Of a stretch of DNA of 64,000 nt, positions 1,915 to 7,359 are shown in pieces. The DNA is from an uncultured Gemmatimonadaceae bacterium. Its GTDB lineage: Bacteria > Gemmatimonadota > Gemmatimonadetes > Gemmatimonadales > Gemmatimonadaceae. A model generated the notes under the pieces. That model was not told where the DNA came from and ran no database searches. It saw nothing but the letters and a program-made list of their open reading frames with translations. How positions within the stretch are numbered: position 1 is the first letter of the stretch; every line of letters starts with the position of its first letter. A program made the position numbers and the translations under genes. The stretch is from positions 736,001 through 800,000 of the forward strand of contig CAVUDW010000002.1 in NCBI GenBank assembly GCA_963740355.1, in the 5' to 3' direction.

Positions 1915-2445
1915 TCAGCCCGGTGTCGAGCTGCGCTCGGCGAGCACCCTCGTCACGAATCGCTGGCCCTCACTGATCCGCTCCACTTCCACCGACATCG
2001 CTTCGACCGCAGCCTCGATCCGCTGCAATCGATCGGTCGTGTCGCGTGCCGGTGCGGCGATCTGTCGGTTGGCACTGCGGTTGACGAGCGCCTTGAGGAA
2101 CCCGAACACCGGATAGGCGGCCACCATCATGCAGAAGCCGACGATCGCCGTGGTTGCGATCGACTGCACGCCCGGTGGGATGTCGCGCGGAAAGTCTCGC
2201 GGGAATTGGGTGCCGGAACCGCCCTGAAAGACGTCACCACCACCGGTGGCGCCGTCGAGCGTGATCGTCTTGCCATCGCGCTGAATCGTGATGCGACCCG
2301 GCGCGGGGGTCTCGCCGCCCAAGACAATCGCAGGAGCCGCGGGAGCGCTTGGCGCCTGCGGTGCTGCGGTGGGCGGTTGTGCCGGCTGCTGCACGATCGT
2401 TGCGCTCCAACCCGCGCCTCGGATCACGAACACCTGATTAGCCAC
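1915..2445 (-). CDS. Single-pass membrane protein, EVERISEGQRF paralog 4
   Basis: GTG start at 2445 with GGAGGT RBS; one TM segment; C-terminal RLQRIEAAVEAMSVEVERISEGQRFVTRVL. Confidence 0.85.
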   Translation of the reverse strand: MANQVFVIRGAGWSATIVQQPAQPPTAAPQAPSAPAAPAIVLGGETPAPGRITIQRDGKTITLDGATGGGDVFQGGSGTQFPRDFPRDIPPGVQSIATTAIVGFCMMVAAYPVFGFLKALVNRSANRQIAAPARDTTDRLQRIEAAVEAMSVEVERISEGQRFVTRVLAERSSTPG

Positions 2446-3013
2446 GTGGAACCTCCAGGGGAGCACGATCGGATAGCAGGCGCGTGGTGAAGCGCTGCCC
2501 TTCACTGATGCGTTCGACTTCGATGGCGACGGACTCGATGGCCGTCTCCATCCGAGCCATGCGTTGCGTGAGTTCAGCGGGCATCTGCGCCGCACCAACG
2601 TGCCCGCGCGTCTTGCTGCGATACCACATCACGACGGCTGCCAGCACCACGATCGCGGTGGAGACGATGGCCAGCCCCGCCACGACGTACGGCCCGTCGC
2701 TTTCCTGCTGATGATCAGGGAGCGGAATGCCGAGGGCCGTCGCGACCGCTTCCGGCGAGGCACCATCGAGTGTGATCGTCTGGCCGTTCTTCGTGATCGT
2801 GACGACTGCGTCGCGGCCGCCATCGGCCTGACCGGCACGCGCAGCCTCACGGGCAGCGTTTCGCGCCTCGTTGGCCGCGTTGCGCTGGTCCCTCGCCGCT
2901 TCGCGTGCTTGGGTGGCGGCCTCGCGCGCTGCCTCTGCGCTGCTACGAGCTTGCGCGGCCTGCGCGTCGGATTGTCCTGACTGCATCAGCATCCTGAATT
3001 CTCGCATGTTCAC
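2438..3013 (-). CDS. Single-pass membrane protein, EVERISEGQRF paralog 3
   Basis: Ala/Arg-rich N-terminal helix, TM (YVVAGLAIVSTAIVVLAAVVMWY), C-terminal RMARMETAIESVAIEVERISEGQRFTTRLL; overlaps both neighbours. Confidence 0.85.
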   Translation of the reverse strand: MNMREFRMLMQSGQSDAQAAQARSSAEAAREAATQAREAARDQRNAANEARNAAREAARAGQADGGRDAVVTITKNGQTITLDGASPEAVATALGIPLPDHQQESDGPYVVAGLAIVSTAIVVLAAVVMWYRSKTRGHVGAAQMPAELTQRMARMETAIESVAIEVERISEGQRFTTRLLSDRAPLEVPRG

Positions 3014-3639
3014 GCCTCGCCGACACTGCGGTACACGGCATCACCGCGAGCCGGCACTGGCACCGGACCTGCCGCACCTTCGGACAGCATCTTCGAGGTG
3101 TAGCGCTGGCCCTCGCTGATGCGCTCGACTTCGACGGCGATCGACTCGACGGCGTTCTCGATCCGGGCCATCCGGGCGGCCGTTTCCTTGTCGGGTGCCG
3201 CTGCGGCGGCGGAGGGCCGACCGCGGCGCAGGTAGTTGAGCACCATCCAGGTGATGAGGACGATTGCACCGAGTGTCGCGACGGTCAGCGACACGATCAT
3301 CTTCGGATCCGGCTGTGACGGCACACCAATGCCCGCCTGCGCCAATTGCTCTGAGGTCGGATTCTCGAGCACGATGGTCTTGCCGTCGCGTTCGATCACG
3401 ATGCGACCGCCTGCCACTGCAGGCACCGGCGGAAACTGCGCGATGTCGGCGTCGCCCTGGGCTGCACCAGCCGCCTTGCCAGCTGCTGCCGCCTGTTCCA
3501 TGCCGGCCAGCGCAGCCTTCTTCGCCGCCAGCTCGAGCTGCGCATCGATCCGCGCCATTTCGGCGTTGGTGGCGGCGGGGGTGGCGGGCGCCTGCGTGGA
3601 CGGTGCCTGTGCGGATCGAACCTGTGTTGGACTACGCAT
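3010..3639 (-). CDS. Single-pass membrane protein, EVERISEGQRF paralog 2
   Basis: TM (IVSLTVATLGAIVLITWMVL), C-terminal RMARIENAVESIAVEVERISEGQRYTSKML; GAGG upstream of ATG. Confidence 0.85.
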   Translation of the reverse strand: MRSPTQVRSAQAPSTQAPATPAATNAEMARIDAQLELAAKKAALAGMEQAAAAGKAAGAAQGDADIAQFPPVPAVAGGRIVIERDGKTIVLENPTSEQLAQAGIGVPSQPDPKMIVSLTVATLGAIVLITWMVLNYLRRGRPSAAAAAPDKETAARMARIENAVESIAVEVERISEGQRYTSKMLSEGAAGPVPVPARGDAVYRSVGEA

Positions 3640-3951
3640 GTGTCACCTCATTGGACGGGGCCCGGACTGGCGCGGCTTCGCGGGCCTTCTGCACCATCGG
3701 TTGCGCTGCTCCTTCTGACAGCAGACGCGTTGTGAATCGCTGGCCTTCCGACAAGCGCTCGACTTCAACGGCAACGGTTTCGACGATCGATTCGAGTCGA
3801 TCGAGGCGCATCGCCAGTTCCGGCGAGAGCGGCGTGCTGACCGAGATTCGCTCCGATTCGCCTCGTATAAGCGCGCACCAGCGGAATGCCGAGCGGCGAG
3901 AATGATCACCGTGGCAAGAAGCAGTGCCGGGATGACGATGTCTTCATTCAT
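3632..3951 (-). CDS. Single-pass membrane protein, EVERISEGQRF paralog 1 (two apparent +1 frameshifts)
   Basis: Removing two single bases (~3890, ~3855) gives MNEDIVIPALLLATVIILALGIPLVRAYTRRIERISVSTPLSPELAMRLDRLESIVETVAVEVERLSEGQRFTTRLLSE...EVTHA*; span 320 nt = 318+2. Confidence 0.75.
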
Positions 3952-5174: not shown

Positions 5175-5426
5175 TGAGGCGACTACGAGCTGAGGGAGGG
5201 GGATGTTTCGGTCATTCTACCCACGGACACACCGGTCGGTCGGGCCCAGCGGTGCCGTTGCGGCGCAACGTCGTTAGTTTATCTGGTGCACTTCCGCTGT
5301 CGCGGCCTCCGGCCGGCCTTGCCCTTAGCATCTGGGGCGGGGCGCCGGGGAGAGCGACCGCGCAGCCGCCGGCACTTTCGCCGCTGCGGCGCGTGCCATG
5401 ATCGCTTCTTCACATCCCCAGTTTAC

Positions 5427-7359
5427 ATGAACGGACGCACGCCGCGTCCGCACGCACCCCGAGGGCCCATCGCCCCGGTGCATCGCGGACCGCAGGCCAG
5501 CAGCATGAGTGCTGCGGCCTCCCCCAGCTACTCGCAGTACAGCCAGGCGCCCAACGCCGCCCTGCTCATCGACTTCGACAACGTCACGATGGGCATTCGC
5601 TCCGACCTGCAGACGGAGCTCAAGAACCTCCTCTCGTCGGACATCATCAAGGGCAAGGTCGCCGTCCAGCGCGCCTACGCCGACTGGCGCCGCTACCCGC
5701 AGTATGTCGTCCCGCTGGCCGAGTCGTCGATCGACATGATCATGGCGCCGGCGTACGGCAGCTCGAAGAAGAACGCCACCGACATCCGCCTCGCGATCGA
5801 CGCCGTCGAACTGATGTTCACGCGCCCCGAGATCGGCACCTTCATCCTGCTCAGCGGCGATTCCGACTTCTCGAGCATGGTGATGAAGCTCAAGGAGTAC
5901 GGCAAGTACGTGATCGGCGTCGGCATTCGCGAAAGCTCCAGCGACCTGCTGGTGATGAATTGCGACGAATACTACAGCTACAACGCACTCGCCGGCCTCG
6001 TGAAGACGAGCGACGAGGAGACCGTGAAGCGCGATCCGTGGGAGCTGGTCACGGAGTCGCTCGCCCGCATGGTGCGCAATGGCGACGTGATGCGCGCCGA
6101 TCGCCTGAAGCAGGTGATGCAGGACATCGACAATGGCTTCGACGAGAAGGATCTCGGCATGTCGAAGTTCTCGAAGTTCGTGCAGGAGGCGGCGCAGAAA
6201 GGCCTGCTGACACTGACGCGACTCGAGAACGGCCAGTTCGAGATTGCACCACCGGGTGTGAAGGCAACGGGTGCGGCACCGGCCGTGGCCAGTGCCGATG
6301 TCGCCGGTGCACTCGACGAAGCCGCCGAGAAGGAAGAGGGCGAGGAGAAGAGCAGCCGTCGCCGTCGTGGGCGTGGTCGTGGACGCGGTGGCCGTGATCG
6401 CGAGCCGCGCGAACCGCGCGTGCTGACTGATGTCGTGGCCACGGCCGTCGCTGCCAGCGAGCCGGCATCGACCACGAGTCGCCGACGTCGAGGAAGAAGC
6501 GGAAGCCGAGGCCGACGTTGTTGTTGCGGCTCCGGTGGCGCCGACGCCGCGCGTCGACGCGCCGCGGCCGACGCACACACCGCGTGCCGAGACGCCGCGT
6601 GCCGCACAGGGACGCGACTCGATCGGGCTCGGTGGTGAACGCCTCACGCGCAACGAAGCCTTCGATCTCGTGCGCAAGGCCGTCCACGCCACGGTCAAGA
6701 ACGACATCCCAGCGGGCATGCTCGCGGTGCGTGAAAGTGCCGCAGCGTTGCTCGGCCGCGACAGCGAAAGCCTCAGCGAACGCAACTTCACTCGAATCCT
6801 GCAGGACGCGCACGATGCCGATGTGATCGACCTGCGCAAGCGTGGCGATTCGTGGGAAGTGGCGCCGGTGCAGCAGGTTGGCGAAGTGTCGGAGCAGCTG
6901 GCGAAGCACGAAGCGGCGAATGCACCGAAGCCGGTGGCTGGACCGCCGGCACCGCGCGGCATGGGCTCACGTGGTGGCATGCGCGGTGGTCGCCCGTCCG
7001 CACCGCCGCCGGGGCTGTTGATGGTGGGTGTGGTGGATGAGTCGCCGAGCGTCGTTTCGACGCCCGTACCATCTGCCGCTGCGCCGGTCGCCGCCGTGGC
7101 GCCCGCCGCCAAGCCAGCGCCACGCGCGCCGGAATTGGCACTGACACCGGCAACACCAGCGAAGTCGCCGGCGAAGCCGAATGGCCGTCGTCCCGCCGCG
7201 AAGAAGGCTGCACCGGCAAAGCCCGCCGTGAAGGCCGCAGCGCCAGCCAAGGCGCCGGTTGCCAAGGCACCAGTGGCCAAGGCGCCAGCCAAGAAGACGG
7301 CGCCCGCCGCGAAGAAGGCAGCAGCCAAGGCACCGGCAAAGAAGGCCGCCAAGCGGTAG
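5427..7359 (+). CDS. NYN (LabA/DUF88) ribonuclease-domain protein with LOTUS/OST-HTH domain and Ala/Lys/Pro-rich tail (one apparent frameshift ~6477)
   Basis: LLIDFDNV, RAYADW, KNATDIRLAIDA, LLSGDSDF, VIGVG motifs; LOTUS-like FDEKDLGMSKFSKFV; ORFs 5286-6638 and 6430-7359 join on removing one base. Start uncertain (5427 or 5505). Confidence 0.85.

Follow-up and report, generated by a model that had tools for sequence, protein, structure and literature searches.

Gene Organization of the Locus

The window considered here, a stretch of 64,000 nucleotides (nt) from an uncultured Gemmatimonadaceae bacterium (assembly GCA_963740355.1, contig CAVUDW010000002.1, positions 736,001 to 800,000), carries on its minus strand a two-component operon in which four paralogous genes of membrane proteins, designated X1 to X4, are inserted between a sensor histidine kinase and a sigma-54-dependent response regulator (Table 1). 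The order of transcription is kinase, X4, X3, X2, X1, regulator and an Omp85-like gene. The neighbours overlap by 4 nt (kinase/X4), 8 nt (X4/X3), 4 nt (X3/X2) and 8 nt (X2/X1), the 10-nt gap between X1 and the regulator is the sole junction without overlap, and the regulator stop overlaps the start of the Omp85-like gene by 4 nt. The coordinates and overlaps of the open reading frames (ORFs) thus confirm the tandem array that had been proposed in a first-pass annotation of the window, and the X genes are probably co-transcribed, as well as translationally coupled, with the kinase and the regulator. X1, X2 and X3 are intact, while X4 is broken in this assembly. For X1, the GTG start at 2445 was preferred to the listed TTG start at 2598, because the sequence GGAGG sits 6 nt upstream of the former and the latter would overlap X2 by 160 nt.

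Table 1. Genes of the operon (positions within the window) and loci of the distant relatives.
Feature	Position or locus	Strand	Description
Sensor histidine kinase (408 aa)	5174-3948	minus	Transmembrane segment (TM) 1, ~63-aa extracytoplasmic helical loop, TM2, HAMP, HisKA, HATPase_c
X4, small form of the family, split over three frames	3951-3632	minus	Found by frame reading and DNA alignment to orthologs
X3 (209 aa)	3639-3010	minus	N-terminal helix, beta-hairpin motif RIVIERDGKTIVLEN, TM, predicted cytoplasmic helix EVERISEGQRY
X2 (191 aa)	3013-2438	minus	N-terminus rich in Ala/Arg/Glu/Gln, VTITKNGQTITLDG, TM, EVERISEGQRF helix
X1 (176 aa), GTG start	2445-1915	minus	RITIQRDGKTITLDG, TM, EVERISEGQRF helix
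NtrC-family sigma-54-dependent response regulator (465 aa)	1904-507	minus	Receiver, AAA+ with GAFTGA, Fis-type helix-turn-helix (HTH)
578-aa secreted protein, weak Omp85-superfamily match (start within the window)	510-1	minus	Also downstream of the regulator in other genera
NYN + OST-HTH gene, divergent	5385-7041	plus	Split over two frames; break at ~6470-6547, in a GC-rich Arg/Gly stretch
bshC-X-murJ (family f7)	L105, L107, L108 (genomes G308, G270, G102)	same strand	bshC, bacillithiol synthesis; murJ, lipid II flippase
X, CesT/Tir-like (PF22550), PspA/IM30 (PF04012) (family f6)	L109, L126, L127, L128, L130 (genomes G109, G301, G123, G262, G082)		

The kinase is matched by the Pfam models HATPase_c (E=1.6e-25), HisKA (5.4e-10) and, under the cut-off, HAMP (0.0035), and the regulator by Sigma54_activat (4.9e-70), Response_reg (6.5e-26) and HTH_8 (2.7e-9), with the GAFTGA motif read in the translation. 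None of the NCBIfam equivalogs NtrC, NtrX, AtoC and ZraR reaches its cut-off for the regulator, the best models being NtrC, AtoC and NtrX, and the regulator is thus assigned to no subtype. An rpoN gene was found in the same genome, and the operon therefore has the full set of features of an NtrC-family sigma-54 two-component system (receiver, AAA+ domain with GAFTGA and HTH in the regulator; HisKA and HATPase in the kinase; rpoN). In the kinase alignment (A3), two hydrophobic segments surround a loop of ~63 residues, so that the loop is short, as had been noted at first, but the kinase is not of the intramembrane-sensing type. The Omp85 match of an ortholog (Pfam, E=5.6e-4, 20 bits) stays under the cut-off of 24; the gene is likely an operon member and points tentatively to a role at the outer membrane. 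Downstream of it, a secreted protein of ~220 aa is conserved in other genera.

A Membrane Protein Family with a Near-Invariant C-Terminal Motif

All four X proteins share one TM followed by an EVERISEGQRF-type motif, and their four-way alignment gives the invariant pattern R..R.E...E....EVER.SEGQR.....L, which is kept in the X3 orthologs; the helix that contains it is near-invariant across the operon copies and the scattered paralogs. The pre-TM motif expected to be common to three copies is present in the translations of X1, X2 and X3 (Table 1). In the 12 residues after the TM, lysine and arginine are more numerous than in the 12 before it in 254 of 261 family proteins, equal in 7 and fewer in 0, and a second hydrophobic segment was seen in 0 of 184 long forms; therefore, a single-pass topology with the N-terminus outside and the C-terminus in the cytoplasm is predicted. 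The AlphaFold2 (AF2) model of X3, built on a 56-row alignment (mean predicted local distance difference test score, pLDDT, 74.8; predicted template modelling score 0.29), consists of a helix at residues 21-57, strands at 80-84 and 87-91, a short helix at 96-101, the TM helix at 112-140 and a 36-residue C-terminal helix at 151-186, with a pLDDT of ~90 in the latter. The hydrophobic residues of this C-terminal helix (~35 residues) follow the a/d heptad spacing and several of its invariant residues are polar, which would be consistent with a coiled coil that bears a surface for a specific partner.

With a profile of 35 C-terminal domains (A2), 3,982 representative clusters (50% identity) were retrieved at E<=1e-3 and 2,766 at E<=1e-10, falling into two size classes of ~90-105 aa and ~170-250 aa, and X3 alone has 161 database homologs at E<=1e-3. 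The X genes are not chance ORFs, because so many homologs and clusters conserve them. The source names among the X3 homologs are all Gemmatimonadota or Gemmatimonadaceae "hypothetical protein", the look-alikes in the ESM Atlas are only unnamed Gemmatimonadota clusters, and every named or taxon-labelled match belongs to Gemmatimonadota. No model of Pfam or NCBIfam matches X1-X4, the intact small ortholog or the scattered copies; a sequence profile search of the Protein Data Bank (PDB) gave a best E of 0.0062 over 22 residues, taken as chance, and Foldseek of the AF2 model of X3 against the PDB gave 0 matches at E<=0.001. Thus, as suspected from the motif alone, it belongs to no family named in these resources, and literature searches, judged from titles and the starts of abstracts, turned up no paper describing it.

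The genome of the window has six copies, four in the operon and two elsewhere, one between hemH and an FAD oxidoreductase and the other beside M28 peptidase and pseudopilin-like genes (neighbours named from their translations). Matches are found in all 18 other genomes of the genus, most of them with one small and three long copies in the array. Among 300 further genomes sampled from the phylum, 64 of the 69 Gemmatimonadaceae (f1) have the family, each with 1-12 matches, whereas other families have weak and mostly single matches: f7 in 29 of 47 genomes, f6 in 14 of 23 and f2 in 10 of 125.

Linkage to the Kinase-Regulator Pair

The association of the X genes with this particular two-component system holds across many genera of Gemmatimonadaceae. 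Among the 30 best loci, 28 are from different genomes outside the genus, and 27 of these are flanked by the orthologous kinase (48-57% identity in other genera) and regulator (64-79%), with one family gene between the pair at 13 loci, two at 12 and three at 2; one of the 27 (locus L062 of genome G178, flagged unpublished) is also a row of alignment A3. The 28th genome (G189) has its operon copy at another locus, and the linkage was seen as well in G064 and in five genomes of the window's own genus, the flanks being checked in three same-genus genomes. Altogether, 1-4 copies lie between the pair in 34 of the 41 examined Gemmatimonadaceae genomes that hold it, so that a gene within the kinase-regulator operon and conserved across taxa, as is expected of an accessory component, is found here; since the 41 genomes were picked by best score or by absence, this biased count is a description and not a frequency. 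Four operon copies were seen only in the window's genus, and where the operon has a single copy, it is the small form (13 of 13). In wider windows, the conserved order is the divergent NYN gene, kinase, X(n), regulator, a ~590-aa Omp85-like gene and the gene of the ~220-aa secreted protein; the gene calls in the fetched loci are crude ones, based on ORF length and the GC content of third codon positions.

The Broken Small Copy

The suspicion that a fourth copy is hidden by frameshifts was well founded. Its three frames carry MNEDIVIPALLLATVIIL / LGIPLVRAYTRR / ISVSTPLSPELAMRLDRLE...EVERLSEGQRF, and the alignment of its DNA to the same-genus orthologs, which are single ORFs of ~104-106 aa with an N-terminal TM and a predicted cytoplasmic helix, places two 1-nt insertions near 3894-3895 and 3853-3855. 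Programmed frameshifting was dropped, given two distinct +1 insertions and orthologs that read through without a shift.

The break is somewhat more probably an assembly error than not. Both insertions lengthen runs of 1-2 bases (by reading of the sequence and the alignment), a metagenome contig of ~95% identity, which like the other contigs compared is from a relative and not from the same strain, is without one base at 3855, and the small copy is open-framed in the 15 same-genus genomes where it was listed, besides its retention in all single-copy operons. Among sequencing runs, none contained more than 20% of the sampled sequence words, and no RNA run was listed among those containing them. 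The divergent NYN gene upstream of the kinase is likewise frame-split in this assembly, being one frame in three same-genus genomes; with this third frameshift within 3.5 kb, indels are evidently not rare in the 5-contig assembly. A real recent pseudogene of the strain is a somewhat less credible but serious alternative, as both frameshifts fall within ~40 nt of one 320-nt gene and the kinase, X1-X3, the regulator and the Omp85-like gene around them are intact.

PspA and MurJ Contexts of Distant Relatives

Beyond Gemmatimonadaceae, two families of the phylum have the X gene in other conserved settings (Table 1). In family f7, another family of the class, all 3 genomes examined, of three genera, carry a single homolog of ~91 aa that is flanked by bshC and murJ on the same strand. 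In the sister family f6, the X gene opens a string of X, CesT/Tir-like and PspA/IM30 genes in five of six genomes (three genera), the sixth (G098, L129) being without this string; no pspC was seen. A reciprocal search of the window's genome with a profile of eight distant proteins (A7) returned exactly its six copies, with no other match at E<=1.

Of the 301 sampled genomes, 275 have PspA, and so do all 120 genomes with the family. In Gemmatimonadaceae, the only 3 genomes without PspA (among the 69 sampled besides the present one) are among the 5 without the family; this joint absence corresponds to at least two independent losses, and the relatedness of the genomes inflates any statistic drawn from it. 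Three genomes flagged unpublished (G203, G081, G120) enter only this PspA tally. The proposal of an envelope-stress module, made initially from the sequence of the operon, thus gains independent support from the X-CesT/Tir-PspA operons and from the constant presence of PspA. The CesT/Tir-PspA dyad itself is a described neighbourhood (PMC11237479); Gemmatimonadota are not mentioned in the main text and one supplement of that work, and its other supplementary tables may list such loci. New here are the four-copy array with its broken small copy, the cases of loss, the PspA and MurJ contexts of the distant homologs, and the co-occurrence with PspA.

Comparison with Known Accessory Membrane Proteins

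In form, the X proteins resemble PspB, that is, an N-terminal TM with a cytoplasmic helical part in ~75-100 aa: the small forms have 91-106 aa, the lysine and arginine bias favours a cytoplasmic C-terminus, and the AF2 model of X3 is helical in these parts. They also share with the PspB system of Proteobacteria (with PspC, PspA and PspF) the link to a sigma-54 enhancer-binding protein and, in the distant relatives, the adjacency to pspA. PspF is without a receiver domain and a cognate kinase, whereas the regulator here has both; moreover, pspA is not adjacent in the present genome or in 9 other Gemmatimonadaceae (in f6 it is, with the CesT/Tir-like gene between), and the X family is expanded. 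No homology to PspB, PspC, LiaF or LiaI, with which the first-pass annotation had compared the proteins, was found. The NCBIfam model of PspB, TIGR02976, gives X2 14.1 bits (E=0.044) against a cut-off of 51.7, with 15.1 bits as the genome-wide best, and 13 of 14 control genomes also match at the level of 14-15 bits. The Pfam model of PspB, PF06667, has no match at E<=1 for 12 family proteins, and no model of PspC (PF04024), LiaI-LiaF-TM or Toastrack matches X1-X4, the small ortholog or either of the two scattered copies at that threshold. The comparison of A2 with a PspB alignment (A4) by hhalign gave a probability of 31.6% over 16 TM columns only, with the helix unaligned, A4 being a narrow alignment of 16 enterobacterial sequences. 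That the X proteins are true, very divergent members of PspB is accordingly very improbable, in spite of the weak match of X2, the adjacency to pspA in f6 and the architecture, PspB being a small N-terminally anchored membrane protein with an alpha-helical cytoplasmic part (PMC11237479). The likeness to PspB, LiaI and LiaF is one of form and context, and not of descent.

The LiaFSR-LiaIH system of Firmicutes is similar: its two-component system controls a PspA homolog, and genes of membrane proteins accompany those of the system. Of LiaF and LiaI, one modulates the kinase and the other anchors the PspA homolog. Both are named among the membrane proteins of the phage shock protein (PSP) response (PMC11237479). 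They have several TMs and X has one, and the regulator class differs, that of X being a sigma-54 enhancer-binding protein.

Sensor kinases can also be tuned by short membrane proteins with a single TM, such as MgrB and SafA (PhoQ) and MzrA (EnvZ). These modulators are encoded away from the operon of the kinase, and what is conserved in them is mostly within the membrane or the periplasm. In contrast, the invariant part of X is a long, predicted cytoplasmic helix, and the X genes lie between the kinase and the regulator. MgrB, of 47 aa, inhibits PhoQ (PMC8404706), on which SafA and MgrB are antagonistic (bioRxiv 10.64898/2026.05.06.723403). PlrP, which acts with PlrSR of the NtrYX family in Bordetella, is a genetically defined third component, always colocalised with an NtrYX-type pair and proposed to limit the phosphatase activity of the kinase (PMC13001219). 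Unlike X, PlrP is periplasmic and its gene is found upstream of that of the kinase; its sequence is unrelated, and it comes from another phylum.

Proposed Role and Alternative Explanations

The X proteins may be accessory, "third-component" membrane proteins that serve an envelope-directed two-component system of the sigma-54 type and act in envelope stress, a reading to which we give an about even chance. The tight overlaps of 4-8 nt, the conserved position between the two genes, the bias towards a cytoplasmic C-terminus, the PspA contexts and the Omp85-like gene downstream speak for it. The small form would be the ancestral member of the operon, and the long forms would add different N-terminal ectodomains (helix and beta-hairpin), which could bring different inputs, while the invariant helix would serve as a shared output surface binding one common partner. 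Candidates for this partner may be the membrane-proximal part of the kinase, PspA/IM30 or its CesT/Tir-like partner. By analogy with PspB/C or LiaF/LiaI, the binding of the helix would tune the kinase/phosphatase balance. A complex prediction of two copies of kinase residues 1-260 (A3) with the C-terminal domain of X3 (A2) had a score of 0.00, which argues neither for nor against binding.

Several observations weigh against such a role. In seven Gemmatimonadaceae genomes the regulator directly follows the kinase with no family gene between, four of them being without any family member (every candidate was scored) and three having copies elsewhere; therefore, the X proteins are dispensable for the pair. 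A comparison of the kinase columns between 28 genomes with X and these 7 without gave one differing column and no regional trend. A sample of 20 further copies included one from the operon, and all the other 19 had no ortholog of this kinase or regulator nearby; the neighbours, scanned for 13 of these 19, are heterogeneous (RtcB, MFS transporters, citrate synthase, ArgJ, a TonB receptor, a Ser/Thr kinase and others). The possibility that the homologs are merely scattered, raised from the outset, thus holds for these copies and for the seven genomes, but not for the operon, whose linkage is kept. The CesT/Tir-PspA pair of this genome, like that of 9 other Gemmatimonadaceae, is not accompanied by a family gene. 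An outside N-terminal tail of ~100 residues without a signal peptide, Arg-rich in X2, is unusual, and because such a tail would have to be exported, the topology of the long forms is uncertain. Finally, the sigma-54 promoter consensus, TGGCAC-N5-TTGCW, was not found upstream of the operon or of pspA: the window has 30 matches at <=2 mismatches against 30.6 expected, the regions before the kinase and after the regulator show no consistent site in 11 loci, no match around the pspA of this genome is better than chance, and the CesT-pspA upstream regions of 10 Gemmatimonadaceae share none.

Part of this evidence would suit another explanation, in which the X proteins are effectors, i.e., membrane anchors or stabilisers that, for example, recruit PspA/IM30 to the inner membrane and are only co-expressed with the two-component system, without feedback on the kinase. 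The X-CesT/Tir-PspA operons of f6 are without any kinase, f7 has the bshC-X-murJ context in 3 of 3 genomes, stand-alone copies are many (3-12 matches per genome), and the kinase-regulator pair exists without X in seven genomes. We consider this explanation unlikely, though a reasonable contender, since the X genes are placed between the kinase and the regulator and not after the regulator with the downstream genes, an arrangement conserved in many genera. Where known systems have a gene at this point, its product is usually a signalling accessory. A further version of the accessory role, which is rather speculative, would make the X proteins a phylum-specific adaptor family in the place of PspB/PspC or LiaI/LiaF: the helix would dock PspA/IM30 or the CesT/Tir-like partner and, in Gemmatimonadaceae, would also wire a membrane-damage signal into the kinase/sigma-54 pair, with up to a dozen paralogs of differing outside domains as parallel sensors on one output surface.

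The PspA/IM30 systems are near-universal, and their membrane partners are known for few phyla and differ by phylum. With its PspB-like form, its place in a sigma-54 operon in one bacterial family and in pspA operons in another, the X family is a testable candidate for the missing partner in Gemmatimonadota, a poorly studied phylum of soil and freshwater. It would also provide a natural example in which a single invariant output helix serves many paralogous inputs, and the definition of the family (TM + R..R.E...E....EVER.SEGQRF) is absent from the current databases.

Scattered Copies with Particular Features

A maximum-likelihood tree of 77 C-terminal domains (83 columns) leaves 40 of 74 inner branches open and has several operon rows mislabelled as scattered, and it is the basis of no claim made above. 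One of the scattered paralogs (L006:1414-2145, minus strand; G000:C2:2116932) has a coiled-coil N-terminus of ~150 residues and clusters with 12 more scattered long forms (support 91, in a tree that is otherwise unresolved); it may belong to a distinct subfamily. In two genomes of one genus (L102 of G276 and L104 of G037), a scattered long copy adjoins argJ, a conserved position unrelated to the two-component system. At two places of one genome (L100 and L101, G042:C2), two identical copies of 87 aa adjoin transposase/integrase fragments (HTH_Tnp_1, rve_3), which suggests that one of them was duplicated with a mobile element.

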